The translations under genes and the position numbers were made by a program. A DNA stretch of 28,906 bases from the IMG/VR virus record IMGVR_UViG_2548876943_000002, positions 1 through 28,906 of that record; one strand, written 5' to 3'. The stretch is from a virus (taxonomy: Duplodnaviria > Heunggongvirae > Uroviricota > Caudoviricetes). Under the pieces are notes generated by a model that saw only the letters and a program-made list of their open reading frames with translations, had not been told where the DNA came from and ran no database searches. Position 1 is the stretch's first letter; each line of letters begins with the position of its first letter. Of the stretch, positions 2,392 to 28,906 are shown in pieces.

Positions 2392-2466
2392 GGGTCAGTC
2401 GTATAAAGGTCATTACGGAAGGCTGTTAACCTTCTTATCGTGGTTCGAGTCCACGCTGTCCCGCCA
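2392..2466 (+). tRNA. tRNA-like gene, anticodon loop CUGUUAA (GUU, Asn-like); imperfect acceptor and D stems
   Basis: Manual fold: acceptor GGGTCAG/CTGTCCC (one T-T mismatch), anticodon stem GAAGG/CCTTC, T arm CGTGG-TTCGAGT-CCACG, discriminator G plus CCA. D stem only 3 bp. Confidence 0.45.
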
Positions 2467-2471
2467 AACAT

Positions 2472-2547
2472 GCTGGTTTAGCTCCAATGGTAGAGCAGTC
2501 GCCTTGTAAGCGAATGGGTAGCGGTTCAAGTCCGTTAACCAGCACCA
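2472..2547 (+). tRNA. tRNA, anticodon UGU (Thr) by manual fold
   Basis: Acceptor GCTGGTT/AACCAGC (7 bp), D arm TAGCTC..GAGCA, anticodon loop CTTGTAA, T loop TTCAAGT, 3' ACCA. One G-A mismatch at the base of the anticodon stem. Confidence 0.6.
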
Positions 2548-2790
2548 TAACTGAGCCGTAGCCACTGGCCATCCTGAATTCATCAGTGATAGTTACGCTG
2601 CGGCCTTCTACACATGACCTTCGTGAAAGCGGGTGGCAGGAGGTTGCGCTAACAACCTCACGCCGTTTTGCCCGTGCATATCGGTCACGAACAAATCTGA
2701 TTACTAAACACAGTAGCCTGGATTTGTTCTATCAGTAATCGACCTTATTCCTAATTAAATAGAGCAAATCCCCTTATTGGGGGGTAAGAC

Positions 2791-3114
2791 ATGAAGATGC
2801 CAGAAAAACATGACCTGTTAGCCGCCATTCTCGCGGCAAAGGAACAAGGCATCGGGGCAATCCTTGCGTTTGCAATGGCGTACCTTCGCGGCAGGTATAA
2901 TGGCGGTGCGTTTACAAAAACAGTAATCGACGCAACGATGTGCGCCATTATCGCCTGGTTCATTCGTGACCTTCTCGACTTCGCCGGACTAAGTAGCAAT
3001 CTCGCTTATATAACGAGCGTGTTCATCGGCTACATCGGTACTGACTCGATTGGTTCGCTTATCAAACGCTTCGCTGCTAAAAAAGCCGGAGTAGAAGATG
3101 GTGGAAATCAATAA
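2791..3114 (+). CDS. S: Class I holin S with dual-start motif (Met1-Lys2-Met3)
   Basis: Protein is nearly identical to lambda S as recalled ([39 protein letters not shown]...). Upstream CCCCTTATTGGGGGG hairpin and TAAGACATGAAGATG match the lambda sdi region. Confidence 0.9.
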
Positions 3115-3574: not shown

Positions 3575-4038
3575 GCAGAGTCACCGCGATTATCTCCGCT
3601 CTGGTTATCTGCATCATCGTCTGCCTGTCATGGGCGGTTAATCATTACCGTGATAACGCCATGACCTACAAAGAGCAGCGAGATAAAAAAATCAGTGAGC
3701 TGAAGCAGGCGACCGCCACCATTACTGACATGCAGCAGCGCCAGCGTTCTGCTGATGCACTCGATGCTAAATACACGAAGGAGTTAGCTGATGCGAAAGC
3801 TGAAAATGATGCTCTTCGGCGCAAGCTTGATAATGGTGGTCGGGTGTTCGTCAAAGGAAAATGCCATATGCCATCCTCAGCCGAAACCTCCAGCGCCTCC
3901 GGCATGGGCAATGATGCCACCGTCGAACTCTCTCCAGTTGCTGGACGAAACGTTCTCGGTATCCGGGACGGAATCATCAGCGACCAAACAGCACTGAGAA
4001 CGCTTCAGGAATACATCAGGACGCAATGCCTTCGATGA
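3571..4038 (+). CDS. Rz: Spanin inner-membrane subunit Rz
   Basis: N-terminal TM ([16 protein letters not shown]), coiled-coil middle, lambda-Rz-like N-terminal half, divergent C-terminus. Confidence 0.85.
3791..3997 (+). CDS. Rz1: Spanin outer-membrane lipoprotein Rz1, embedded in the +1 frame of Rz
   Basis: Signal peptide with lipobox (LIMVVGCSS), proline-rich mature region ([16 protein letters not shown]), entirely inside Rz in a different frame. Confidence 0.8.
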
Positions 4039-4212
4039 TAGCGATAATTTTACTCATCATCCTTCACATCTGGCTCTGTAGACAGGGTGGTGATCACTTC
4101 TGGAGTGAATCCAGATTAAACATCTCATTGCTGATGCTTGATATTGAGCATCTTGCGCGCGGTAAGGGGCTGCGTTGAGATAAGAGCCAGTCATCACAAA
4201 CACCAGGATTTA

Positions 4213-4236
4213 GCCTCGCATTCGCGGGGCTTTTTA
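4213..4236 (+). terminator. Intrinsic terminator-like hairpin (GCCTCGC-ATTC-GCGGGGC then TTTTT)
   Basis: GC-rich stem with T-run read from sequence, about 175 nt downstream of Rz. Confidence 0.45.
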
Positions 4237-4256
4237 TTGCAACAAAGGTAAAGACG

Positions 4257-4544
4257 ATGGATGAAGAATATCGTAAAGACCTGCAACTGTGGTTTGGTCT
4301 TACGCATGCGCCGTTCTGCGTGATGCCGCGAGTATTCATGGAGGCTATGCCGCCAGAATGGCAAGAGAAGATGGCTCAGTTGCTTTTTGAGTATAGCGAC
4401 ACAATAAAAACGGATGTCTGCGGAGTTCACAGCTGTTTTGTTACTGCCAAAGACGGCAACAACCGCTTTATGAGGATGCCAGAAGATATTCTGAACTATC
4501 GTCATCCCCGACGTGAATTCATCGAATCATTTCTGAAGAAGTAG
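4257..4544 (+). CDS. Hypothetical phage protein (95 aa)
   Basis: ORF between lysis and packaging modules. Overlapping antisense ORFs rejected. No family recognised. Confidence 0.5.
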   Translation: MDEEYRKDLQLWFGLTHAPFCVMPRVFMEAMPPEWQEKMAQLLFEYSDTIKTDVCGVHSCFVTAKDGNNRFMRMPEDILNYRHPRREFIESFLKK

Positions 4545-15753: not shown

Positions 15754-17130
15754 ATGGCTACTTGGCAAGGATCAAATGGCGGATTGTTAGCTGGTATCGG
15801 CGGCGTCAACTCAAACGCTCCGAGCGTAAATGACATCGGCAATACGCTTCAGCTTATCAGGCAGAACAATGATATTGAGCGTTCAGGCGCTAACAATGTT
15901 GGGCTGACTGCTTTGCAAGGTCTTTCAGGTATTGCAGGGGTGTTTCAGCAGGAAAAGCAGGCTCAGCGGCAGAAAGAATTTCAGCAGGCATACGCTAATG
16001 CTTATGCGTCTGGTGATCGCGGTGCTTTGCGTCAGTTGGCTACTCAATATCCAGACCAGATTGAATCCGTTCGTAAAGGCATGGGATTCATTGATGAAGA
16101 TCAGCGTAATTCTATCGGCACCTTAGCGGCTGGCGCACGCCTTGCGTCATCGTCTCCAGAAGCAATGCAATCATGGCTGCAAAACAACGCCAAGGAACTG
16201 ACTCGAGTCGGTGTTGACCCTAATAACGTTGCTCAGATGTATCAGCAGAATCCTTCAGGATTTGGTGAGTTTGTTGATCACCTTGGAATGTCAGCGCTTG
16301 GTCCTAATGATTATTTCAATGTTCAGGACAAGATGGCTGGTCGTGAGATTGACCGAGGCAGGCTGGCAGAGACAATCCGCAGCAATCAGGCTGGCGAGGC
16401 ACTTCAGGCGAGAGGGCAAAACCTTTCCTATCAGTCAGCAATGACTGGACACGGACTTGCAGCAGAAAGGCTGGCACTTGATAAGCAGAAATTCGGTTTT
16501 GAAGTACAACAGGCACAAAAGAAGGCCGATGAACTTATTAATGCTGCGCCAAAACTATCTGTGAACATGGAAAAGGCTATAGAAAAATCAGCAGGTGATG
16601 CGGCAGCTAGTCGTAATGCTGCCGATTCAATGACAACGCTTGCTGACACGCTTGAGAAGGAGAAGCCAACTCCTGGTTTGTTCGGTAACGCTGAAAATAT
16701 GTTCACTAAGCTTACGGGGCAAGATAACTACCTCCGAGATATGCGGATTAGATTCAACCAACTAGCCAATGCGCAGGCAACAAAGCTTCTCCCTCCCGGC
16801 CCTGCATCAGATAAGGATGTTGAGTTTGCAAGGAAAGGCATTCCAAGCGAAACGGATAATCCAATGGTCATGGCTCGATGGTTAAGGGGGATGGCAAAAA
16901 TGGAAAGTAATAACGCGAAGTTCAACGAGTTTAGGTCAGAGTGGATGAGTGCAAATGGCAGCCCAGGACAATCTGATCGCAACCGAAACATCATGGGGAT
17001 GGATGTTAAGAAGGGTGAATCATTGAACTCTGCGGCAAAACGTTTTCTTTCCTCAAGTTATGGCGATAGCCAACCTCAACAGCAATTGTCCGATGACGAA
17101 TTAATTAGCAAATATCTCGGAGGGCAGTAA
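15754..17130 (+). CDS. Ejection protein, P22 gp20-like
   Basis: 458 aa, syntenic, low-complexity Q/A-rich composition typical of E-proteins. Confidence 0.7.
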
Positions 17131-18956
17131 TGGCCTATAGTCGTGAACAGTTGATGACGGCGTTAAGGAATGCTGATGCTGCCGGCGATACTGAGGGAGC
17201 ACGTCGCATTGCTCAGATGCTGTCTTCTGGTGATCAATCCACTCAAAACCAATCGCAGCCAGAAGAACAATCTCTGGTGGGAAAAGCTACTGACTGGCTC
17301 ACTGGTGGTCAAAGTGCAGGGCAAATTGCAGAACAGGCTGGTCGTGGTCTGGTAAACATACCATTTGACGTATTGCAGGGTGGCGCAAGTCTGATTAATG
17401 CAATCAGTCAGGGGCTTGGTGGTCCAAAAGTATTGGATGATGTCTATCGTCCAGTCGATCGACCGACAGACCCTTATGCGCAAACTGGAGAAACAATTGG
17501 CGGGTATTTAGTTCCAGGAGTTGGAACGGCAGGAAGCATGGCTATTGGATCACTGGCAGAGGCCGCAAATCAGAAAGGCGATTTCGCACAAAATGCAGCA
17601 AAAAATGCCGGAGTTAACCTTGCCGCTCAGGGGGTTCTTTCCGCAGCAGCAAAGGGAATAGGGCGTGGAATAACGGCTATAAAAGGTGATATTGCGCCAG
17701 AAGTAGCGAAGAAAATTGCCACATCAGAATCGATGGGCGTGACACCAATGACATCTGATGTTATCCCGCCGAAAAATGCTTTCACTCGCGGCCTTACTCA
17801 GGATGCCGAGGGGGCTTTGCTCGGGACAGGCTCAAAGCGAGCGGAGCAATATGCAACGCGTAGTAAGCTGGTAAGCAATTATTTTGACCGTTTTGGTGAG
17901 TACAACCCTGATGATGTGGTGAAATCTCTGACCACCACGTTAAGGGGGCGGAAGGATGCCGCTGGCGCTGTTATCAATGACGTCACCAATAAAATGGGTA
18001 ATGCCGCAGTTGATACCACAAATACCATGAATGCTCTGAATACAGCGATCGCAAGACAGGAACGGCTTGGGACGTCTGCCAATCAAAGCCTGCTTACATC
18101 CTTGCGTAACCTACGTGAAGAATTAGCAAACCCTGCAACTGATTTGGATGTTACGTTTGATCTCTTGCGTCAGCACAGAACAGCATTTAGATCTAATGTT
18201 CAGGGAGATGCTATGGTCTTCCCCAACCAGGCAAAAGCAGCTACCAATATGGTAGAGAATGCAATGTCAAAAGACCTTCGTAACGCAGTTGCAAAAAACC
18301 TCGGTGCGTCAGACGCAGCAAAATACCTTAAAGCAAATTCCGATTATGCAAACGTTTATAATAAGGTGCTTAATAAAAACATTGCCAACAAGCTCAACAA
18401 GGCAAGCAGTGAAGCCAGTCCTGAACTTATAAATACCGTTGTATTAAGCAGAAAACCATCTGACGTGAAACGAATCTGGAGCGCACTGGATGATAAGGGG
18501 AAAGATGCTATGCGTGCAGCTTACGTCAGCAAAATAGCGGAAAAGGCCGGGGACTCTCCAGCCAAGTTCATCACTGAAGTTAATAAGCTGAAATCTCAGT
18601 CAGGCGGTGAAATTTACAACACTATTTTTTCTGGAAAGCACATGAAAGAGCTTGATGCTCTTCATGAAGTTCTACAGCAAACAGCAAGGTCAGACACCGC
18701 AAATGTAGTAACTCAGACGGGGCAATCGCAAGCCAACAGGATAAGGACGATTGGCGCAACTGCGACCCTTGGCGTATCAATGGGGCTTGAGGCTGGTTTT
18801 GGTGCAATGATGCGCTTGTATGAGTCTAAAGCAGCAAGAAACATGCTTCTCCGCCTTGCAAACGTCAAGCCTGGAACTCCGGCATATGAGCGAGCGTTAA
18901 ATCAGGCTGCTAACGCCGTTCGCCCTCTCCTAACTAACGAAGCTACCAGGCAGTAG
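17130..18956 (+). CDS. Ejection protein, P22 gp16-like
   Basis: 608 aa (P22 gp16 is about 609), syntenic; start overlaps gp20-like stop. Confidence 0.7.
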
Positions 18957-18975
18957 AAATGAACGCCAAGGAAGG

Positions 18976-19305
18976 CTATTTAATTCTCTTTTCAATGGCT
19001 GCAATTATTGCTTTTCCTGATGTTTCAGGAGATTTTGTAGCCATATAAGACGAAAAAATCATGTCGGTCATTCTTTCATAACTTACTATTTCCCACTTAG
19101 CCAATGCATGGGACAGTTTGTAGTTGTCATCAGTTAGTGCCCTTATGGAATTTTTTAAGTGTTTATTCTCTTCAGTTAATCGCGCAATTTTTGTATCAAT
19201 TTCATGTGAGCGATCTAATTCCTTAACCTGTTTCTTGAGGGCAGCTAACCCTGCATATAGTACGCAACAGGATATCCCAAGAGCGAGTACTACTATTTCT
19301 AACAC
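18976..19305 (-). CDS. Small membrane-anchored coiled-coil protein (109 aa); candidate superinfection-exclusion or accessory protein
   Basis: Minus-strand ORF convergent with gp16-like. N-terminal hydrophobic segment (LEIVVLALGISCCVLYAGLAAL) then charged heptad-like region. Sits where P22 carries sieA, but shows no recognisable similarity. Confidence 0.5.
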   Translation of the reverse strand: MLEIVVLALGISCCVLYAGLAALKKQVKELDRSHEIDTKIARLTEENKHLKNSIRALTDDNYKLSHALAKWEIVSYERMTDMIFSSYMATKSPETSGKAIIAAIEKRIK

Positions 19306-19679
19306 ACCAACCTCCTTAGTTTTTCGCAGGATACCAGATGATACTTTATTGGTGGAGTGGTGTGTGAAAACGTGTCAACGACAAACCATCCACAACTTGG
19401 ACGAATGATTTAGCAAAAAGTGCTATTTTTGGTGTTTGGTGTCATAGAAAAGTGAATAGCTCACTTTTCAACATTGCATGAAACTTGCAGGAAATGTGAC
19501 ATTACCTTATAGGTAACTTCGGCGAAAATGCAGTAAATGTGAAACGTAATGGTTTAAACATGTCGCTAAAGTGGTTGTAAGTTAGCCTCCGAAGGATTGC
19601 TGATAGCTTTGTTATAGTATTAAATGACATTTGACATAGTTGGATACTTAGCTGTGGCTATCAAGATGGAGGTGTGTTC

Positions 19680-20123
19680 ATGCTTACTTGTTTTGATGTC
19701 GCCGACTACTTCCTGTCGCGGTGTGACGAGGATAGCGGTGACACAATCTCTAATTTAAAATTACAAAAGCTTGTTTACTATGCTCAGGGTTTTTCATTGG
19801 CGTTGCTTGGCGAGCCTCTTTTTCAGAATAAGATGGAAGCTTGGATGCATGGCCCTGTTGTCCCTGAGCTTTATCGCCGTTATAAACAATATGGTAATGG
19901 CGCTATCCCTTCTCCAGAGTCTTTTGATGCTGAAAAATTCAGCGAAGAACAGTTAGAGCTATTAGAAGAAGTCTGGGATGTTTTTGGGCAATTTTCTGCC
20001 TGGAAACTGAGGAACATGACACACGAAGAGTCACCATGGAGATCAAACTATATTGAGGGTGTTGGTGGTTCTGAAATTAGCTCTAAGGAGATGGCAGAGT
20101 ACTTTGCAACTCGGATTAACTAA
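19680..20123 (+). CDS. Panacea/DUF4065 (SocA/GepA-like) domain protein; candidate PanA-type antitoxin
   Basis: Motif NLKLQKLVYYAQGFSLALLGEPLFQNKMEAWMHGPVVPELY resembles the DUF4065 (PF13274) signature as recalled. GGAGG RBS 8 nt upstream of ATG 19680 (track's non-ATG start at 19674 rejected). AT-rich moron context. Confidence 0.6.
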   Translation: MLTCFDVADYFLSRCDEDSGDTISNLKLQKLVYYAQGFSLALLGEPLFQNKMEAWMHGPVVPELYRRYKQYGNGAIPSPESFDAEKFSEEQLELLEEVWDVFGQFSAWKLRNMTHEESPWRSNYIEGVGGSEISSKEMAEYFATRIN

Positions 20124-20127
20124 CGAG

Positions 20128-20547
20128 ATGGCAAGAAAATCTAAAAGGATTATCCCCCCTGCTGAATCTACAGGTAAGTTAAAGTTAGGGCCGCAGTCAG
20201 GGGGGAATTCAGATCAAAAGAAACCGAAATTTTCATTCTGTTACATCCAAAGCTCTCACTGCATAACGAAATGCCAAAAAGATGAGAAAGCTGGCTTAGC
20301 TGATAAATTATACAGATTAAGTCAACTAACATGGGCAGAGATTAAGCAGCAAGGTAGGCATAAGCTTGGATTTGAGAAGATTGCAAGGGGTGCAATTAAA
20401 GCAGGTATCCCCAGTCATATAACGGAAGACGTAGATCATTTCTTGGCTTTTAGATTTGATGATTTGAAAGCCATGGTTGGTTATCGTCTTGGATCGACAT
20501 TTTTTGTTATATGGCTTGATAGAGAGTTCAACCTATACAAGCACTAA
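20128..20547 (+). CDS. Uncharacterised 139-aa protein coupled to the Panacea-domain gene; candidate toxin/effector partner
   Basis: Starts 4 nt after the upstream stop. Basic N-terminus (MARKSKRIIPP...), C-terminus GYRLGSTFFVIWLDREFNLYKH. No family recognised. Followed by a strong hairpin terminator. Confidence 0.5.
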   Translation: MARKSKRIIPPAESTGKLKLGPQSGGNSDQKKPKFSFCYIQSSHCITKCQKDEKAGLADKLYRLSQLTWAEIKQQGRHKLGFEKIARGAIKAGIPSHITEDVDHFLAFRFDDLKAMVGYRLGSTFFVIWLDREFNLYKH

Positions 20548-20549
20548 TA

Positions 20550-20576
20550 AAACCCACCGTCAGGTGGGTTTTTTGT
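20550..20576. terminator. Bidirectional intrinsic terminator (AACCCACC-GTCA-GGTGGGTT flanked by A-run and T-run), overlapping the mnt stop codon
   Basis: Perfect 8-bp hairpin with TTTTTT downstream and AATAAAA upstream, read from sequence. Confidence 0.75.
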
Positions 20577-20811
20577 ACAAATCCTTCAGCGTATCAAACA
20601 CCATCTTCTTAACAAGATCTGACTGCTCATCAGCGAGTCGTTCTGCATCGTCACGATATCCAGTCACAGGCGATGGTTTTGATAGAGCATCTTGGACGAT
20701 TTGTAACAACTCGGAGTTCATTGATCTCCCATTCGCCTCCGCCCTGAATTTTAATTTCTCCCTTACTTCCATAGGCATACGGAAGTTAAAGTGCGGATCA
20801 TCTCTAGCCAT
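20560..20811 (-). CDS. mnt: Mnt repressor (immI maintenance repressor)
   Basis: 83 aa; MARDDPHFNFRMPMEVREKLKFRAEANGRSMNSELLQIVQDAL... is near-identical to P22 Mnt as recalled. Confidence 0.9.
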   Translation of the reverse strand: MARDDPHFNFRMPMEVREKLKFRAEANGRSMNSELLQIVQDALSKPSPVTGYRDDAERLADEQSDLVKKMVFDTLKDLYKKPT

Positions 20812-20901: not shown

Positions 20902-21063
20902 ATGAAAGGAATGAGCAAGATGCCGCAGTTCAATTTGCGGTGGCCTAAAGAAGTATTGGATTTGGTACGCAAGGTGGCGGAAGAGAATGGTCGGTCTGTT
21001 AACTCTGAGATTTATCAGAGAGTAATGGAAAGCTTTAAGAAGGAAGGGCGCATTGGCGCGTAA
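20902..21063 (+). CDS. arc: Arc repressor (ribbon-helix-helix)
   Basis: [53 protein letters not shown] is near-identical to P22 Arc (53 aa). The track ORF starting at 20839 is an upstream extension through the operator. Confidence 0.9.
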
Positions 21064-21131
21064 AGTGGAAGCCCCAACTGCGGGAACAGTCAGGGCTTCG
21101 GTTGTCAGTAAATCCGTGGAGAAAAACCAAC
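21064..21131 (-). ncRNA. sar: Expected location of sar-like antisense RNA (arc-ant intercistronic region); inferred by position only
   Basis: In P22 a small antisense RNA (sar) is transcribed leftward across the ant RBS. Here the arc-ant spacer contains an imperfect hairpin (GAAGCCC...GGGCTTC). Exact ends not determinable. Confidence 0.3.
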
Positions 21132-22034
21132 ATGAATAGTATAGCAATTTTAGAAGCAGTGAACACCTCTTACGTACCATTCAACGGTCAGCAAATTATC
21201 ACCGCCATGGCTGCCGGAGTTGCATACGTTGCGATGAAGCCAATCGTTGAAAACCTTGGAATGAGTTGGGGTACTCAGCAACAAAAACTTATGAAACAAC
21301 TAGATAAGTTCAACTGTATTCATATGAATATGGTTGCCGCTGATGGGAAGCTTCGTAAGCTACTCTGCCTTCCTTTGAAGAAGTTAAATGGATGGCTGTT
21401 CAGCATCAACCCTGAGAAAGTTCGAGCTGACATCCGCGATAAACTGATTCAGTACCAGGAAGAATGCTTTACTGTACTGCATGACTACTGGACAAAGGGA
21501 AAGGCAGAAAATGCACGTAAGAAAACATCTGTTGATGACAGGACTCCGCTTCGTGATGCTGTAAATATGCTAGTCAGCAAAAAGCATCTAATGTACCCAG
21601 AAGCTTACGCAATGATTCATCAGCGTTTCAATGTGGAAAGTATTGAAGAGCTTGATGCATCTCAGATACCGCAAGCCGTAGAGTACATCCACAGGGTAGT
21701 GCTTGAAGGTGAGTTCATCGGCAAACAAGAGAAGAAAACCAACGAGCTTTCTGCAAAAGAAGCAAGCAGCCTTGTATGGCTATGGGATTATGCCAACCGC
21801 TCACAGGCATTATTCCGCGAACTGTATCCGGCGCTGAAACAAATTCAATCGAACTATTCCGGCAGATGTCATGACTGCGGTTATGAGTTCTCCCGTATTA
21901 TCGATATAGCGAGAGACGTTTTAATCAATCACTCACGAGATGTTGATATCAATGAGCCAGACGGACCAACGAATCTTTCCGCATGGATGAGACTTAAGAA
22001 TAAAGAATTACCTCCTTCAGTACATAACTACTGA
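21132..22034 (+). CDS. ant: Antirepressor Ant
   Basis: 300 aa; N-terminus [49 protein letters not shown] matches P22 Ant as recalled. ATG 21132 chosen over the track start at 21102. Confidence 0.85.
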
Positions 22035-22134: not shown

Positions 22135-24165
22135 ATGACAGATTCAATAAATGCCAATGTTGTAGTAAGTATGCCATCGCAACTCTTCACTATGGCTCGT
22201 TCTTTTAAAGCCGTAGCCAATGGTAAAATTTATATTGGTAAAATTGACACTGACCCGGTAAATCCAGAAAACCAGATTCAGGTTTATGTGGAGAACGAAG
22301 ACGGTTCTCACGTTCCTGTTTCGCAACCAATCATCATTAACGCTGCTGGATATCCGGTATATAACGGACAGATTGCCAAGTTTGTAACTGTGCAAGGCCA
22401 TTCTATGGCTGTTTATGATGCGTACGGTGTGCAGCAGTTCTATTTTCCGAATGTGCTGAAGTATGATCCAGATCAGTTCTCCATAGATTTCCCTCAGCAA
22501 CTTTCTCAATTAGGGTTATATGTAAATGATGACAGCAAGGGAGATGCAATGATAGGTGTTAAGCAGCCTATCACTGGGTCAATTCATCGTACACAGCACG
22601 ATGTAAACTATGAAAGAATTAGCGCTTTTGACCTTGGAGTGAAGGGGGATGGAGTTACTGATGATGTAACTGCAATTAGAGAAGCACTAATCACTGCAGC
22701 AACAGCAAGACGTTCCATCCATTTCCCTGATGGCGTCTATTTATGCAGTGACTTTTTTTCAATACCAAGCCACTCAAGGATCTATTGTGACCCCGGTGCA
22801 GTTTTTAAACTTACAGGTAGTACTAGCCTTGGTGGATTCGCTGTAACAGGCCTCAATAATCAGGTGCAGACAGAGCTATGTGAAGATGTTGTTACGTATA
22901 ACATGACGCTTGATTGCAATAAAATATCAGGTGAAAACGGAATGAATGGCGTGACATGTAGGAACATACGTCACTACAACCTTACAGTCATTAATACTCT
23001 TCACAACGCAGAATCAAGAGGAGGAAGGGCCTTTCAATGCGAAGGGGGGATTTCATCTGATGTCCATGTTTTTAACTTTGTAATTAAAAATTGCTCTATA
23101 GGTGTAAATTATCAAGGGCTACCAGATGCATCTCAAAAGGTTGCAGCATTCAGCTTTCACGGTGTAGCAATGGAGAACGTAGATGTTCCGTTCTGTATTT
23201 ATTCACAAATATCTAACCCTGAGTCAAACACACCAGAAATTATGAGTGTAGCTGCGTTTGATGTAAGTTGCCATAACTGCGGAAAAATCACTGGTGGATA
23301 TGGTGATCAACTTGGTGCTGGAATAATATGTGGCGATAGAGGTTATGGGCTATTTATAGATGGTATTCGAGTGGTTAACGAATCATCGTATGGAGGGATT
23401 GGAGCTTTTATAAGGGGGCAAATGTTTGGCGTATCAATAAACAACGCTGACATTTATTGCATTTACGCTGTTTCAGTAATAGATCATAACAAGATAGGGT
23501 TTGATGACGCCGCTGTTAATACAGTTCCTTCAAGCGTTAGAGTTAGAAATTTAAATGTATCAAGTAATTTGGATTTTATAGTTCGAGCCCCTGACTCTTC
23601 GGCTATTGGTAACTCAACAGTTGACGTGTCTGTAAACATAACAAGAGCATCACTAAATCAATTATTTGATTCTGGCGCAGGAGGAAGCGCTTCCGCAGTT
23701 ATTAATATATCTGACTCTTTGACTGGTAAGTCATCAGGATTTAGAACGTTAAAAAATATTTTTGATGCTGGTAATTCTATTGGTTTACTATCTAGATATG
23801 ATGCTGGCGGAAGCTGGGTCCCAATAGACGGTAGTGGTGCAGGAATTGCAATATTATTAACAGGACAGCAAAAATATACAAAAGCAGGTGAGGTTGTTCA
23901 CTTTTATATGAACATCATATACCCAGTGAACGATAACACAAACGACGCTGTTATCTCTGGATTGCCTTTTAACTCTGTACCGTTTGTTTCTCAATTTGCA
24001 GGAGCGGCATCAATAGCGATTAAGTCATCATCAATGTTATCAACTGTAGGGATTCTTCCTGGTGGTGATAAGCTGAAATTCTATGGTACAACTGGTGCCC
24101 CACTAACTAACAGAGACATGTCAGGCGTTAGTGTTGCTGTTTTCGGATCATATATTTCAGAATAG
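22135..24165 (+). CDS. Tailspike protein: P22-like N-terminal head-binding domain fused to a divergent beta-helix (pectate-lyase-like) receptor-binding/depolymerase domain
   Basis: N-terminal about 115 aa (…[39 protein letters not shown]…[10 protein letters not shown]) matches the P22 gp9 head-binding domain as recalled. Downstream [21 protein letters not shown] resembles Pectate_lyase_3-type beta-helix motifs. Lower GC in the 3' two-thirds. Confidence 0.85.
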
Positions 24166-24204
24166 AAGAAAAATATATTTAAATTGGTGCAAAAACTTGG
24201 ACGC

Positions 24205-24236
24205 ACAAAGCTTTGTACTGGATTACAAAGCTTTGT
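24205..24236. repeat. Two perfect 12-bp palindromes ACAAAGCTTTGT with 20-bp centre-to-centre spacing, about 40 bp downstream of the tailspike stop
   Basis: Read directly from sequence at 24205-24216 and 24225-24236. Confidence 0.8.
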
Positions 24237-24896
24237 GTCATTCGATAGTTAAGGTGGTCACTCCACCTTTTCATCAATCCAGTCAGCCCACCATTGCATC
24301 ATTTCTCTGCACTTAATGTAGCGGATGCCTCACTATCACATAGTGATGGTTCATTACTGCTTTGTAGAATGGATAGAGAACTGAGGATAAAAAGATATCC
24401 CAAAACCCCAAAATCTCATCTTTAGGATTGCAGAAAGGGAGGCGTGAACAGATACCTGCGCATGAAGACGGAACCAGTCCAGATGTGATATTTGTGGTGA
24501 TCACATACATCATCAACGATGCTCGTTATGGTGAGTTTGATGACTACCCGCTGAAGTGAAAATAGTGTTGTGTACCAAATTGCGTACCAAACTAAAATCA
24601 CAAATCATGAAACCCTTGTTCATGGCGGTTCTCAGGGGTATTGCGCGTAATCGTGAAACAAAAAGGTAGATTGTTGCTTACCGTCATTCATCATTAGGTT
24701 AAATCCGTTATTTCTGCTGTCTGCCAGAGTATCAAATATCACCGTGCTAATCAGCTTTAGCGCAACAATTTGACAGCGAGTGGCAACAGATCATGTCAGA
24801 TAAAAATGAGAGAGTAGTCACATTTTCTTGCACTTTATTCCAGCCAGTTCATAAGTATTTCCGTAAAAAGAACAGCTATTTGAAACTCCTGAGGGT

Positions 24897-26069
24897 TTGC
24901 TGTTGAAACGCCGTCTTATTATTGCTGCTTCTTTGTTCGTTTTTAACTTATCGTCTGGTTTTGCGGCGGAAAACATTCCTTTTTCACCTCAGCCTCCACA
25001 GATTCATGCCGGGTCCTGGGTACTGATGGATTACACCACCGGTCAGATCCTCACCGCGGGTAATGAGCATCAACAGCGCAATCCCGCCAGCCTGACAAAG
25101 CTGATGACGGGTTATGTCGTGGATCGCGCTATCGATAGTCATCGCATTACGCCAGACGATATTGTCACCGTGGGGCGCGATGCGTGGGCGAAAGATAATC
25201 CGGTGTTTGTCGGTTCTTCACTGATGTTTTTGAAAGAGGGCGATCGCGTATCGGTACGTGATTTAAGCCGTGGTTTAATTGTGGATTCCGGAAATGACGC
25301 TTGTGTTGCTCTGGCTGACTATATTGCCGGTGGGCAACGGCAGTTTGTTGAAATGATGAACAACTATGCCGAGAAGCTGCATCTCAAGGATACGCATTTT
25401 GAAACAGTGCATGGTCTGGATGCACCTGGCCAGCATAGCTCGGCTTATGATTTAGCTGTGCTTTCTCGCGCTATCATCCACGGCGAGCCCGAGTTTTATC
25501 ATATGTACAGTGAGAAAAGTCTCACCTGGAACGGTATCACCCAGCAAAACCGTAACGGGTTGTTGTGGGATAAAACCATGAATGTTGACGGCCTGAAAAC
25601 GGGTCATACTTCTGGTGCCGGGTTTAATCTCATTGCTTCGGCTGTAGATGGGCAGCGTCGTCTCATTGCAGTGGTAATGGGGGCTGACAGTGCAAAAGGT
25701 CGTGAGGAAGAGGCAAGAAAATTACTGCGTTGGGGGCAACAAAACTTTACTACGGTGCAAATTTTGCACCGTGGGAAAAAGGTCGGAACGGAACGCATCT
25801 GGTATGGCGATAAAGAAAATATCGACCTGGGAACGGAACAAGAGTTCTGGATGGTGCTACCGAAAGCCGAAATTCCACATATCAAAGCCAAATATACCCT
25901 TGATGGTAAAGAGCTCACCGCGCCAATTAACGCCCATCAGCGGGTAGGGGAAATTGAACTTTACGACCGTGATAAACAGGTGGCGCACTGGCCGCTGGTT
26001 ACCCTGGAATCTGTCGGGGAAGGCGGCATGTTTTCCCGCCTGAGTGATTATTTCCACCATAAGGCCTGA
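24897..26069 (+). CDS. dacD: D-alanyl-D-alanine carboxypeptidase DacD (PBP6b); TTG start as in the ORF track
   Basis: Protein recognised as E. coli DacD from memory (signal peptide, SxxK motif in NPASLTKLMTGY, SGN motif in DSGNDA). Confidence 0.85.
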   Translation: MLLKRRLIIAASLFVFNLSSGFAAENIPFSPQPPQIHAGSWVLMDYTTGQILTAGNEHQQRNPASLTKLMTGYVVDRAIDSHRITPDDIVTVGRDAWAKDNPVFVGSSLMFLKEGDRVSVRDLSRGLIVDSGNDACVALADYIAGGQRQFVEMMNNYAEKLHLKDTHFETVHGLDAPGQHSSAYDLAVLSRAIIHGEPEFYHMYSEKSLTWNGITQQNRNGLLWDKTMNVDGLKTGHTSGAGFNLIASAVDGQRRLIAVVMGADSAKGREEEARKLLRWGQQNFTTVQILHRGKKVGTERIWYGDKENIDLGTEQEFWMVLPKAEIPHIKAKYTLDGKELTAPINAHQRVGEIELYDRDKQVAHWPLVTLESVGEGGMFSRLSDYFHHKA

Positions 26070-26155
26070 CCTTTCTTTTGCAGCAGACTGGCAGGAGTGC
26101 GAGTCTGCTCGCATAATCAACACTCATTCCTTGTGGTTTTAATTTTGCAACTATA

Positions 26156-26171
26156 CTGTATATAAAAACAG
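26156..26171. promoter_or_regulatory. LexA box (CTGTATATAAAAACAG) upstream of sbmC
   Basis: Perfect CTG-N10-CAG SOS box read from sequence about 17 nt upstream of the sbmC start. sbmC is a known SOS-regulated gene. Confidence 0.8.
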
Positions 26172-26187
26172 TGTTAATGGAGGCGTC

Positions 26188-26661
26188 ATGAACTACGAGA
26201 TTAAGCAGGAAGAGAAACGTACCGTTGCAGGTTTCCATCTCGTTGGTCCGTGGGAACAGACGGTAAAGAAAGGCTTTGAGCAGTTGATGATGTGGGTAGA
26301 TAACAAAAATATTGTGCCGAAGGAGTGGGTTGCTGTCTATTACGACAATCCAGATGAAACACCCGCCGAAAAATTACGCTGCGACACCGTTGTGACGGTA
26401 CCGAATAACTTTACGCTCCCCGAAAACAGTGAGGGCGTTATTCTGACAGAAATTTCAGGTGGTCAGTATGCGGTTGCGGTGGCTCGTGTAGTCGGTGATG
26501 ATTTTGCTAAACCCTGGTATCAGTTCTTTAATAGCCTCTTGCAGGACAGTGCTTATGAAATGTTACCAAAGCCCTGCTTCGAGGTTTATTTGAACAATGG
26601 CGCGGAAGATGGGTACTGGGATATCGAAATGTATGTTGCGGTGCAGCCAAAACATCACTAA
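26188..26661 (+). CDS. sbmC: DNA gyrase inhibitor SbmC (GyrI)
   Basis: 157 aa; recognised as E. coli SbmC from memory ([26 protein letters not shown]...). Confidence 0.85.
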
Positions 26662-26859
26662 TTCATCTCAGGGCGGTGTGTTAACGCGATGACCACTCTT
26701 TTTTTTGAAAGCGAAAAGAGTAAGATGCGCCTTTCAATTTTTTCGCTCCTGCCGGGAAATTACACTGTTCCCGGTATGTCCGTCGGATAACTCAGAGGCG
26801 CGCCTTCTGGCCGACAGATGTGTTATGAGCGCTTTTAATCTTCATTACGGAGTTTCTGC

Positions 26860-27918
26860 GTGCGTGCCGATAAGTCATTAAGCCCGTTTGAAATCCGGGT
26901 ATACCGCCATTACCGCATTGTGCATGGTACTCGGGTCGCGCTGGCATTCCTGCTCACTTTTCTCATTATCCGCCTGTTTACTATCCCGGAAAGCACCTGG
27001 CCGCTGGTCACCATGGTGGTGATTATGGGGCCAATCTCGTTCTGGGGTAACGTTGTCCCTCGCGCCTTTGAGCGTATTGGCGGTACGGTGTTGGGTTCGA
27101 TTTTAGGTCTTATCGCTCTGCAACTGGAGTTAATCTCGTTACCGCTGATGTTAGTCTGGTGCGCGGCGGCCATGTTCCTTTGCGGTTGGCTGGCGCTGGG
27201 CAAGAAACCGTATCAAGGTTTATTGATTGGGGTGACGCTGGCAATTGTTGTTGGTTCCCCGACAGGTGAAATTGATACGGCGTTATGGCGAAGCGGCGAT
27301 GTGATCCTCGGCTCTTTACTGGCAATGTTGTTTACCGGTATCTGGCCACAACGGGCGTTCATCCACTGGCGCATTCAACTGGCGAAAAGTCTGACCGAGT
27401 ATAATCGGGTCTATCAATCTGCATTCTCACCGAACTTACTCGAACGCCCACGTCTGGAAAGCCATCTACAAAAACTCCTGACCGATGCCGTGAAAATGCG
27501 TGGGCTGATTGCGCCCGCCAGCAAAGAAACCCGTATTCCAAAATCGATATATGAAGGTATCCAGACCATTAACCGCAATCTGGTTTGTATGCTGGAGTTG
27601 CAAATCAATGCGTACTGGGCCACGCGCCCCAGCCATTTCGTGTTATTGAACGCGCAAAAACTTCGTGATACCCAGCACATGATGCAGCAAATACTGCTGA
27701 GCCTTGTTCATGCGCTGTACGAAGGTAATCCGCAGCCGGTTTTTGCCAATACGGAAAAATTGAACGATGCTGTGGAAGAGCTGCGTCAGTTGCTCAATAA
27801 CCACCATGACCTGAAGGTAGTGGAAACACCAATCTATGGTTATGTGTGGCTGAACATGGAAACGGCGCATCAGCTTGAGTTGCTATCGAATCTGATTTGC
27901 CGGGCCTTGCGCAAATAA
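26860..27918 (+). CDS. yeeA: Inner-membrane protein YeeA (FUSC-family-like), GTG start
   Basis: 352 aa with multiple TM helices in the N-terminal half; recognised as E. coli YeeA from memory. Confidence 0.8.
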   Translation: MRADKSLSPFEIRVYRHYRIVHGTRVALAFLLTFLIIRLFTIPESTWPLVTMVVIMGPISFWGNVVPRAFERIGGTVLGSILGLIALQLELISLPLMLVWCAAAMFLCGWLALGKKPYQGLLIGVTLAIVVGSPTGEIDTALWRSGDVILGSLLAMLFTGIWPQRAFIHWRIQLAKSLTEYNRVYQSAFSPNLLERPRLESHLQKLLTDAVKMRGLIAPASKETRIPKSIYEGIQTINRNLVCMLELQINAYWATRPSHFVLLNAQKLRDTQHMMQQILLSLVHALYEGNPQPVFANTEKLNDAVEELRQLLNNHHDLKVVETPIYGYVWLNMETAHQLELLSNLICRALRK

Positions 27919-28089
27919 TTCCTGAACTTCAGAATCATCTTGCTGCTGCTTCGATTCAGCAAGGATAAAGGGTATGATAGTGAAAAGGGATAAAAGCATT
28001 GTCATCTGCGGCAGCTATGAGTAATGTTGGCCCTAACGAATAGCGGTTGCTTAAACGAATCCGACTCTCACATTATCAGGGGTATAAAA

Positions 28090-28419
28090 ATGGAAACTAC
28101 CAAGCCTTCATTCCAGGACGTACTGGAATTTGTTCGTCTGTTCCGTCGTAAGAACAAACTGCAACGTGAAATTCAGGACGTTGAGAAAAAGATCCGTGAC
28201 AACCAGAAGCGCGTCCTGTTGCTGGACAACCTGAGCGATTACATCAAGCCAGGGATGAGCGTTGAAGCAATCCAGGGCATCATCGCCAGCATGAAAGGTG
28301 ACTATGAAGATCGCGTTGACGATTACATCATCAAAAATGCCGAGCTCTCCAAAGAACGCCGCGATATCTCCAAAAAGCTGAAAGCTATGGGCGAAATGAA
28401 AAACGGCGAAGCGAAGTAA
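28090..28419 (+). CDS. yeeX: YeeX (UPF0265/DUF496) small coiled-coil protein
   Basis: [48 protein letters not shown]... recognised from memory. ATG at 28090 chosen over the track start at 28024. Confidence 0.8.
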
Positions 28420-28519
28420 TTCCTGTTTTATTCAATGAGGGTTGCCCGGCAACCCTCATTGCTCATTGATTCTTATCTGTGTATCACCGTCATCATTCTC
28501 ATCTGAGAACCTATCGAAA

Positions 28520-28702
28520 TTAGCGGCAGCCTTCTTCTGTATGCAGCAAGGCAAAAAGTTCTGTAACTCCATTGTTATTAACCGCACTGGTTACTAACAC
28601 GTTGTGCGCTCCAGCTTCCCGTAACCAACATTTCACCAAAGATATTTGTTCCATGCTGGCTAAATCTGCTTTGGTTACTACTCCAATGACCGGGTGATTC
28701 AT
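28520..28702 (-). pseudogene. yoeF: EutP/PduV-like GTPase C-terminal fragment (yoeF-like pseudogene)
   Basis: 60-aa ORF with ...GVVTKADLA...VKCWLREAGAHNVLVTSAVNNNGVTEL resembling the C-terminus of EutP/PduV proteins. Too short to be an intact gene; the locus corresponds to yoeF in K-12 by position. Confidence 0.45.
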
Positions 28703-28906
28703 GGCCCGGTAGGGCGTTTTTACCTATAATTCCTGCTTCAGCGCTGAGATTCCTGCTTGTTGCCGGAAAAGCAGGCACCTGCCGTCTGAACGGTATCGAT
28801 CCGGAAGCGTATCTGCGCCATATTCTGAGCATACTGCCGGAATGGCCCTCTAAACGTAACCACAACTGCTGAGGGTATCGGCTTTGCAGGTCAGCCCTTT
28901 TGCATA

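Follow-up and report, generated by a model that had tools for sequence, protein, structure and literature searches.

The segment between gene 16 and mnt in a P22-like prophage raises the question of whether the three small genes that it holds form one cassette, whether the two that lie in tandem are an undescribed toxin–antitoxin or abortive-infection module, and what role these genes could have in the prophage. The window (the whole stretch of DNA that was analysed, 28,906 nt) is a P22-like (Lederbergvirus) prophage of Escherichia coli with two accessory modules between gene 16 and the immI region. These comprise a 109-aa gene on the minus strand and a plus-strand pair, here called panA and panT (Table 1).

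Gene content of the gene 16–mnt slot

Each of the three ORFs has its own PHROG family (E about 1e-60 or below), and exact copies of each of the three proteins are on record from hundreds to more than 1000 contigs; these are real genes, not chance ORFs. A first-pass annotation, made from the letters of the sequence, had described the ORFs, a 374-bp spacer, a 4-nt gap between the tandem genes and a bidirectional terminator, and all of these are present where it had placed them. It had also taken the slot to be the one in which P22 carries sieA and hkcC. This is correct for sieA, which lies in this accessory slot (PMC10461980), but not for hkcC: both hkcB and hkcC belong to HK620, and the P22 slot contains sieA and orf59a. 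The description of the cassette as AT-rich is accurate with regard to composition, with a GC content of 0.37–0.44 compared with 0.47–0.55 in the upstream structural genes. However, the immI region and the downstream tailspike gene are equally low in GC, and the cassette is therefore not an isolated AT-rich island.

Table 1. Positions of genes and other features from gene 16 to ant (numbering of the window).
Feature	Positions	Strand	Remarks
gp16-like gene (ejection-protein gene 16)	17130-18956		left neighbour
109-aa ORF	18976-19305	minus	GTG start
intergenic spacer	19306-19679		374 bp
conserved leader / mosaic junction	19297-19336	minus	
noncoding region specific to the panAT module	19337-19679	plus	presumed promoter and 5' leader
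panA	19680-20123	plus	147 aa; stand-alone Panacea (DUF4065); presumed antitoxin or regulator
panT	20128-20547	plus	139 aa; Kurata cluster T1; ATG start
bidirectional intrinsic terminator	20549-20577	both	common to panAT (+) and mnt (-)
mnt (Arc/Mnt repressor)	20560-20811	minus	Pfam Arc and Repressor_Mnt; right neighbour, opens immI
arc	20902-21063		immI region, outside the panAT module
sar RNA	21064-21131		Rfam sar at 91.5 bits
ant	21132-22034		immI region; tailspike gene further on

Domains and pairing of PanA and PanT

The assignment of the 147-aa protein to the Panacea (DUF4065) family was confirmed by a profile search, in which PF13274 matched with E=1.8e-24 and 87.3 bits (cutoff 25.7) over profile positions 1–112 of 113. 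PanA also belongs to phrog_1281 (E=6e-60) and is labelled ‘Panacea domain-containing protein’ by PGAP (WP_000954425.1); its gene is preceded by the Shine–Dalgarno sequence GGAGG (19668–19672), 7 nt upstream of the start. The same Panacea domain is found in SocA of the type VI toxin–antitoxin system SocAB of Caulobacter. However, PanA scores only 71.4 bits against the NCBIfam SocA equivalog NF047745, far under its cutoff of 190, and is thus not SocA itself; moreover, the partner of SocA is SocB, whereas that of PanA has a RelE fold. Stand-alone Panacea proteins neutralise toxins directly, and Panacea has been proposed as a sensor (PMC10440598); most PanAs neutralise via direct binding, independent of ClpXP (PMC8832971).

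The panT gene starts 4 nt past the TAA stop of panA. Its product has a RelE/YoeB/YafQ-like (BECR) alpha/beta fold, preceded by ~30 N-terminal residues that are basic and disordered (pLDDT 54–70) and that are additional to the RelE-type toxins. PanT shares 4–14% identity with the ribosome-dependent mRNA endonuclease toxins RelE, YoeB, YafQ and HigB, and its partner is a Panacea protein, whereas RelE-type toxins pair with RelB, YefM, DinJ and HigA antitoxins. The first-pass annotation had recognised no family for the 139-aa protein. This is true of Pfam, in which neither PanT nor any of 39 relatives has a match (RelE, ParE, YoeB, HigB and YafQ families included), but the RelE/ParE (BECR) fold and the homology to NsnC described below do place the protein. 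NCBIfam gave a sub-threshold match to MAG6450 only, PDB sequences gave no match in single-protein or profile searches, and the PanT family profile gave no significant alignment with E. coli YoeB or YafQ. Given that no sequence match to the RelE-type families was obtained, the link between PanT and RelE is drawn from the fold and the NsnC profile only. The PanT family exceeds 1500 clusters at 50% identity, most of them uncharacterised.

[quoted passage not shown] This domain was matched by 39 of 39 PanT-family members (best E=1.7e-10), with residues 31–135 of PanT aligned to positions 178–279 of the 284-position NsnC profile; on this profile comparison, PanT is homologous to the C-terminal effector domain of NsnC. 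Across 39 diverse PanT-family sequences, E83 and R109 are invariant, and H78, R120, Y137 and H139 are kept in at least 90%, which makes these six the candidate catalytic residues of PanT; the set fits the H-R-H triad reported for NsnC. NsnC itself has an inactive-PIN N-terminal domain ahead of the effector, whereas PanT matches the C-terminal domain only and stands alone. Neither NsnA (ParB/DUF262) nor NsnB (ABC ATPase) is encoded beside panT, the neighbours being panA, mnt and the 109-aa gene, and PADLOC profiles other than NsnC gave no matches. In place of NsnA and NsnB, PanT would be controlled by PanA.

The tandem genes had been described as a tight two-gene unit, and their adjacency is indeed held in seven other loci, from at least five genera and three phyla, with a gap of −8 to +35 nt (−8 to +6 in six of the seven). 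Adjacent panA and panT genes were found in Acidobacteria, Solidesulfovibrio, Aeromonas, Morganella, Pantoea and phage E212, and the two proteins co-diverge across the paired loci. The Acidobacteria copy lies outside phages, in housekeeping-gene surroundings. Prophages of several types carry the pair. In E. coli, panAT occurs in ~2% of complete genomes, and plasmids account for 4 of 117 matches. Among P22-like prophages the site is constant, always the gene 16–mnt slot. Phages obtained as free particles (Emek, phiv205-1 and E212) likewise carry the module. E212 differs from the window in both proteins (71% identity for PanA, 52% for PanT) between flanks that are 98–100% identical, which represents allele replacement between near-identical flanks.

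Earlier cataloguing and possible roles of panAT

The suggestion that the pairing is undescribed has to be withdrawn, because Kurata et al. (2022, PNAS, PMC8832971) already had a near-identical pair, from Salmonella phage vB_SemP_Emek, in their Dataset S1 as PanAT cluster T1 (pT1/T1, reciprocity score 4|5, predicted ‘mRNase’), with the Emek PanA entered as a ‘noNTD’ PanA (PMC8832971). The panAT module is 99.5% identical to that of Emek at the DNA level, and the Emek proteins (YP_006560565.1/YP_006560566.1) differ from those of the window by T22A and R66H in PanA and E71D in PanT. As in the window, the antitoxin gene of Emek comes first and the pair lies between gene 16 and mnt; the left neighbour in Emek is gp14 (129 aa), to which the 109-aa protein of the window is unrelated. 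With a Panacea domain above the Pfam gathering score and a near-identical pair in the founding dataset, the window pair is a PanAT system that is already known, catalogued and tested in 2022 and annotated by PGAP, and it carries little weight as a discovery. The window pair does not appear in the available supplement text of the 2023 NetFlax paper.

In the published assays, the Emek toxin YP_006560566.1 was ‘not toxic’ upon arabinose induction from pBAD33 in E. coli BW25113, and its neutralisation/complex entry in Table S1 is ‘n/a’ since the toxin was scored not toxic; the T1 toxin of E. coli MOD1, WP_077635758.1, was likewise ‘not toxic’ from pBAD33 in BW25113 (PMC8832971). The MOD1 toxin is probably the same protein as the window PanT. 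Toxicity was seen for one T1 member, that of C. cadaveris, which its own PanA failed to neutralise (PMC8832971). A mismatch of host would be a poor explanation of the non-toxicity, since the module naturally resides in E. coli. These results count against the expectation that the 139-aa partner is toxic alone, although the constructs were longer forms and not the 139-aa ATG-start form. In Emek, the toxin that was annotated and tested (orf161) begins at a TTG and is 161 aa long, as against 139 aa from the conserved ATG; this TTG (20062 in the numbering of the window) lies 66 nt upstream, and the resulting 62-nt overlap with panA equals the ‘gap -62’ of Dataset S1. For MOD1, ‘gap -20’ fits a TTG at 20104 and probably a 147-aa construct. 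The added N-terminal residues, 22 in the Emek form (LVVLKLVLRRWQSTLQLGLTNE) and probably 8 in the MOD1 form, are encoded by the 3'-terminal stretch of panA, read in a frame other than its own.

On balance, although with modest confidence, we interpret panAT as a PanA-controlled, RelE-like RNase module of the prophage, plausibly for defence, with the 109-aa gene as a separate module. PanT would most likely be an RNase with mRNA as its substrate, cleaved probably at the ribosome, and PanA would most likely bind PanT directly, holding it inactive. With its own terminator and a presumed promoter in the 374-bp region, panAT is laid out as a self-contained accessory unit (‘moron’). Its expression would take place in the prophage state, to the advantage of the lysogen. 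This advantage would most plausibly be defence, whereby a superinfecting phage disturbs PanA and PanT then shuts off translation. A defensive role is suggested by the homology of the T1 family to the effector domain of Menshen, a predicted RNase, and by the presence of sieA in the same slot. The reading as a whole is favoured by the Panacea domain of PanA, the direct neutralisation by stand-alone Panacea proteins, the conservation of residues and pairing, the earlier listing as ‘mRNase’, the toxic T1 member, the allele replacement in E212 and the module having its own terminator. Against it stand the published non-toxicity, the failure of the toxic T1 member to be neutralised by its own PanA, the negative searches of PanT against RelE-type Pfam families and PDB sequences, and the promoter scan without a hit. 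In their available texts, the papers on Panacea and on Menshen do not refer to each other's systems.

It is possible, and we propose this only tentatively, that PanA–PanT(T1) is not a classical toxin–antitoxin pair but a phage-triggered defence system, in which PanT remains inactive, over-expression included, as long as PanA has sensed no component of an invading phage. Such trigger dependence would account for the negative outcome of the published assays. In fused CapRel, the antitoxin domain need not dissociate from the toxin for activation, and a trigger-dependent PanA–PanT would by analogy resemble CapRel in this respect. If true, the proposal would connect Menshen NsnC, through its homologous effector domain, with the toxin cluster that is the largest of those associated with Panacea.

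It seems rather unlikely that the negative assays instead reflect the constructs, with the upstream-TTG extensions having impaired the tested proteins and the native 139-aa PanT being an ordinary RelE-like toxin, constitutively toxic and neutralised by PanA. The gap values of Dataset S1, which agree with the extended starts, are consistent with such an artefact, as are the panT gene calls in the seven other loci and 39 homologues, which begin at an equivalent position (122–145 aa), and the current PGAP call, which is the 139-aa form. However, the N-terminal ~30 residues of native PanT are already disordered, such that an added tail need not disturb the fold, and two different extensions both gave no toxicity (the MOD1 form on the basis of probable identity).

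The ‘not toxic’ outcome for two differently extended constructs would also be expected if PanT were a non-toxic RNA-binding protein or a narrow-specificity RNase that, with PanA as its partner, serves the phage's own biology, for example in the processing or control of certain transcripts, of phage or host, in the lysogenic or the lytic state. Retention of the module in Emek, phiv205-1 and E212, and the large and mostly uncharacterised family to which PanT belongs, accord with such a role. We nevertheless regard it as unlikely, as one T1 homologue is toxic, the presumed catalytic residues recur in different phyla, the homologous domain is the predicted effector of a defence system, and the module occurs outside phages as well.

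An addiction or stabilisation pair, in which a stable PanT outlasts the labile PanA and so kills or arrests any cell that has lost the prophage, without a role in defence, is improbable despite the TA-like two-gene architecture with the antitoxin first, the RelE fold of PanT and the carriage on mobile elements (several prophage types, and plasmids in the few cases given above): it needs a toxin that is toxic alone, which the published tests of PanT did not see, an integrated prophage gains little by post-segregational killing, and the Acidobacteria copy sits amid housekeeping genes.

The 109-aa gene and the flanks of panAT

The minus-strand gene had been described as part of the same cassette as panAT, which is contradicted by its distribution: the two occur together in only 1 of 111 matching E. 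coli genomes and in 0 of 20 matching phage records, and the 109-aa gene is present at ~91% DNA identity in Salmonella phages ST160 and SE1, both of which are without panAT. It is a separate, independently assorting mosaic module. The encoded protein (phrog_8100, E=1.4e-69, with weak matches to Rz-like spanins) belongs to a small family, with 14 clusters, of enterobacteria. Its N-terminus is a hydrophobic anchor (Kyte–Doolittle 2.3 over residues 1–19), followed by a coiled coil, leucine-zipper-like with weak matches to DivIC/bZIP/ZapB and GCN4, and by an invariant C-terminal portion of ~45 residues; its PDB profile matches were discarded as generic leucine zippers.

The leader of this gene comprises the Shine–Dalgarno sequence AAGGAGG, the GTG start and ~25 nt upstream. 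In a four-way alignment, the same leader precedes otherwise unrelated genes, namely P22 sieA, HK620 hkcB and Emek gp14; the match to HK620 extends over 40 bp at 97.5%. The left edge of the panAT module falls at this leader in ~110 E. coli genomes (query positions 340–347). The 109-aa gene thus resembles P22 sieA and HK620 hkcB in its slot, its strand and its ~35-nt leader with Shine–Dalgarno sequence and GTG start, and also in encoding a small protein with a hydrophobic anchor at the N-terminus. HkcB is additionally 109 aa long; by eye, its N-terminus is hydrophobic, although below the hydrophobicity threshold used, and its middle is heptad-like. The 109-aa protein was rejected as a homologue of HkcB, SieA or Emek gp14, given that no sequence similarity was found; BLASTP against P22 SieA (type A, the sole SieA compared) gave E=0.31. 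Whereas SieA is a polytopic inner-membrane protein of 164 aa, the 109-aa protein has a single anchor.

In P22, sieA is a prophage-expressed exclusion gene housed in the same slot (PMC10461980). Based on slot position, the 109-aa protein may be another prophage-expressed envelope protein, and more tentatively it could exclude phages in a new way, with the conduit for DNA ejection as its target. In P22-like prophages, the gene 16–mnt slot swaps unrelated small membrane proteins behind one leader, and these are candidates for exclusion functions.

Between this leader and panA, the upstream region of panAT contains the motif GCAAAAAGTGCTAT at 19411–19424, a perfect palindrome (GAAAAGTGA-n5-TCACTTTTC, 19447–19469) and a direct repeat, TGCAG(G/T)AAATGTGA, at 19486 and 19529 (TGCAGnAAATGTGA repeats). 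A sigma-70 consensus scan of the 374-bp region found no promoter; nor did the scan pick up the evident terminator, in which the A/T flanks can pair to lengthen the stem and probably left no T-run to be recognised. Positions 19328–19577 are identical to phage E212 at 98–100%. This block was considered as a conserved regulatory RNA and rejected, as it has no Rfam match and is not conserved in Morganella or in Pantoea, the upstream region of which has the 14-mer GCAAAAAGTGCTAT in common and is otherwise not conserved. Recombination of the phage backbone is therefore a simpler explanation of the identity to E212. The Morganella PanT is closer to the window PanT than is that of E212, yet the upstream block is not conserved there.

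At the other end, the right edge of the shared panAT module lies at query positions 1618–1624. The terminator hairpin (20549–20572) lies between A- and T-runs and is predicted by folding to have a stability of -15.8 kcal/mol (z = -4.0), with 0 of 200 shuffles as stable. The stop codon of mnt falls within the hairpin loop, and a terminator is annotated at the same place in the record of phage Emek.

Prophage setting and layout of the locus

In the window, E. coli chromosome follows the late half of a prophage of the P22 type (Lederbergvirus), with the junction shortly 3' of the tailspike gene (within window 24166-28906). The gene order to the right of the studied region is mnt, arc, sar, ant, and tailspike, and the immI regulatory circuit looks intact because a full-length sar antisense RNA sits between arc and ant. 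In the E. coli chicken isolate GPEC859 the studied region is matched at 99.9% identity over 100% of its length. The ORFs, spacer, gap, and hairpin of the first-pass annotation were all found at its coordinates. GC drops to 0.37-0.44 in the cassette, but the cassette is no isolated AT-rich island, since GC is equally low in the downstream immI region and tailspike.

Features of the prophage late half and the adjoining chromosome
Feature	Position	Strand	Remarks
Q antiterminator homolog	1811-2329
tRNA-Asn(GTT) and tRNA-Thr(TGT)	2392-2547		Phage tRNAs, directly 3' of Q homolog
Virion genes			Between tRNA genes and gene 16
Ejection-protein gene 16	17130-18956
109-aa gene	18976-19305	-
Intergenic spacer			374 bp, between 109-aa gene and panA
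panA (147 aa)	19680-20123	+	GGAGG upstream
panT (139 aa)	20128-20547	+	Starts 4 nt past panA stop
Terminator hairpin	20549-20572	both	A-/T-run flanks; -15.8 kcal/mol, z = -4.0
sar antisense RNA, full length	21064-21131	-	Rfam RF00262, 91.5 bits
Tailspike	22135-24165
dacD-like (PBP) gene	24897-26069		Chromosomal side
sbmC/GyrI-like gene	26188-26661		Chromosomal side
FUSC-family yeeA-like gene	26860-27918		Chromosomal side
DUF496 gene, yeeX-like	28024-28419		Chromosomal side

A FUSC_2-family gene also follows panAT in a Morganella locus. The mnt stop codon (TGA, minus strand; 20560-20562) lies within the loop of the bidirectional terminator, one arm of which is made of the final mnt codons (KKPT); P22 orf59a, located between mnt and its terminator in P22, is absent from the window.

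Gene exchange in the sieA slot

The site was rightly read as an accessory slot, as P22 has sieA in this position; the P22 genes are sieA and orf59a, however, and hkcC, which had been attributed to P22, is together with hkcB a gene of HK620. The 109-aa gene and panAT had been treated as one cassette, but similarity searches split the region at ~19297-19336 into two modules. In phages of Salmonella that lack panAT (ST160, SE1, and their relatives) the 109-aa gene is ~91% identical, and positions 19296-20577 (upstream region, panA, panT, and terminator) show 99.5% identity in Salmonella phage vB_SemP_Emek (Emek) and phiv205-1. Matches occur in 111 of 5426 complete E. coli genomes, mostly to the panAT part; the left-hand gene beside panAT is usually different or missing, and both modules are found together in one of the 111. 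The right-hand neighbor is likewise variable: some related prophages, including that of E. coli APEC IMT5155 (3804-4340 of the compared locus), have panAT and mnt separated by a gene with a ClpP-like protease subunit annotation, and another has a LexA-family protein in place of mnt.

The 40-bp junction between the modules coincides with the leader (AAGGAGG and GTG start) from which the minus-strand gene is read. This leader, conserved over ~35 nt (TGGTATCCTGC..AAAACTAAGGAGGTTGGTGTG; window 19270-19336, minus strand), precedes four slot genes after gene 16, encoding P22 SieA (164 aa), HK620 HkcB (109 aa), Emek gp14 (129 aa), and the 109-aa protein of the window, all four unrelated to one another. 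Three of the four reach the N-terminal Kyte-Doolittle hydrophobicity threshold; HkcB is below it, though its N-terminus looks hydrophobic. This gene swapping is one of three points of residual interest. The 109-aa protein belongs to a small enterobacterial family (14 clusters). Its N-terminal anchor is variable, its middle part resembles a leucine zipper, and its C-terminal ~45 residues are invariant; its sole distant likenesses are weak matches to i-spanins of the Rz type, whose architecture is the same. Position and leader, rather than homology, suggest an envelope function analogous to that of SieA.

The PanA-PanT pair and its published record

The Panacea (DUF4065) assignment of the 147-aa protein was confirmed by PF13274 (87.3 bits vs a cutoff of 25.7, full profile covered). 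PanA is a stand-alone Panacea protein, far under the SocA equivalog threshold (71 vs 190 bits). Its partner had been described as of no recognizable family, and indeed no Pfam family was found for PanT or 39 relatives, nor a PDB sequence match for PanT; yet PanT matches the C-terminal part of the PADLOC model of NsnC, a Menshen defense-system protein (E=5.9e-6), as do all 39 aligned relatives (best E=1.7e-10), and has a RelE/BECR fold. A 2025 analysis (PMC12065111) terms the Menshen NsnC domain 'PB-BECR1' and describes it as an RNase effector that is YafQ-like and bears an H-R-H triad; this homology is a second point of interest. With 39 diverse sequences as input, AlphaFold gave a confident model of PanT (pLDDT 87), except for the first ~30 residues, which are disordered and basic. 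The family is large and uniform, with 182 clusters at 90% identity (indexed search) or 1516 at 50% identity (exhaustive search, E<=1e-3), and homologs are nearly always 130-146 aa among the matches listed. Two residues, E83 and R109, never vary, and four others (H78, R120, Y137, and H139) are kept in at least 90% of sequences; the set is consistent with an active RelE-type RNase of putative active-site geometry.

A Panacea gene lies directly 5' of a panT homolog in phage E212, a P2-like prophage of Aeromonas, the end of a prophage in Morganella, a phage region of Solidesulfovibrio, a mobile element of Pantoea, and, amid housekeeping genes, the chromosome of an acidobacterium. Six of seven comparison loci have a panA-panT gap between -8 and +6 nt, and PanA (55-80% identity) and PanT (46-73%) diverge together. 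The locus is very probably a PanAT module of cluster T1 whose partner has the RelE/BECR fold. The pair is already catalogued as such: Dataset S1 of Kurata et al. (2022; PMC8832971) places the near-identical Emek pair (YP_006560565.1/YP_006560566.1) in PanAT toxin cluster T1, first in the cluster list, spread across many phyla, its toxins predicted as 'mRNase'. Emek PanT differs from that of the window solely by E71D, and PanA by two residues. The first-pass annotation was thus wrong on novelty; any function of the pair is putative.

A partner harmless on its own, which that annotation had counted against its reading, is in print for the natural host species: the Emek and E. coli MOD1 T1 toxins were 'not toxic' on induction (pBAD33, E. 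coli BW25113; Table S1 of PMC8832971). The Clostridium cadaveris T1 toxin was toxic, yet its own PanA gave no neutralization (PMC8832971). The Emek ORF tested was a 161-aa gene call with a TTG start 66 nt upstream, overlapping panA by 62 nt ('-62' in the PMC8832971 table) and adding 22 residues from another panA frame, and the '-20' gap of the MOD1 toxin (WP_077635758.1, probably the PanT of the window) fits a gene call of 147 aa that begins with the TTG at 20104. Gene calls for homologs begin at the equivalent of the ATG at 20128, the start that PGAP now calls here. This start-codon problem is the third point of interest, and one rival reading is that a construct artifact masks an ordinary toxin.

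Candidate function and upstream elements

On fold, conserved residues, NsnC homology, and published work in which stand-alone Panacea proteins neutralize toxins directly (PMC10440598), PanT would be an RNase kept in check by direct PanA binding. The module may further serve the lysogen as a phage-defense device, given its place in the sieA slot, its self-contained layout with its own terminator, the homology of PanT to a defense effector, and putative allele replacement relative to E212. We lean slightly toward this reading of a PanA-held RNase in lysogen defense. The published 'not toxic' result speaks against it, as does the fact that no promoter was assigned upstream of panA; a plain addiction module, a non-toxic, RNA-directed function for the phage itself, and the construct artifact are the alternatives.

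The noncoding region 5' of panA (window 19328-19577) is 98-100% identical to E212 and identity returns to 94% at the terminator, whereas PanA and PanT are 71% and 52% identical; on these comparisons, divergent panAT alleles lie between near-identical flanks, a pattern read as allele replacement. An exact 14-mer, GCAAAAAGTGCTAT (window 19411-19424), lies ~250 bp 5' of panA both here and in the otherwise unalignable Pantoea locus (chance about 4e-4, a rough estimate), and is a candidate promoter or operator element. Two further elements, a perfect palindrome of 9 bp, GAAAAGTGA-n5-TCACTTTTC (19447-19469), and a 14-nt direct repeat, TGCAG(G/T)AAATGTGA (19486-19499 and 19529-19542, 43 bp spacing), are candidate operator sites. 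The upstream spacer of Morganella panAT (2679-3052 of that locus) is also exactly 374 bp, its sequence unrelated to that of the window spacer.
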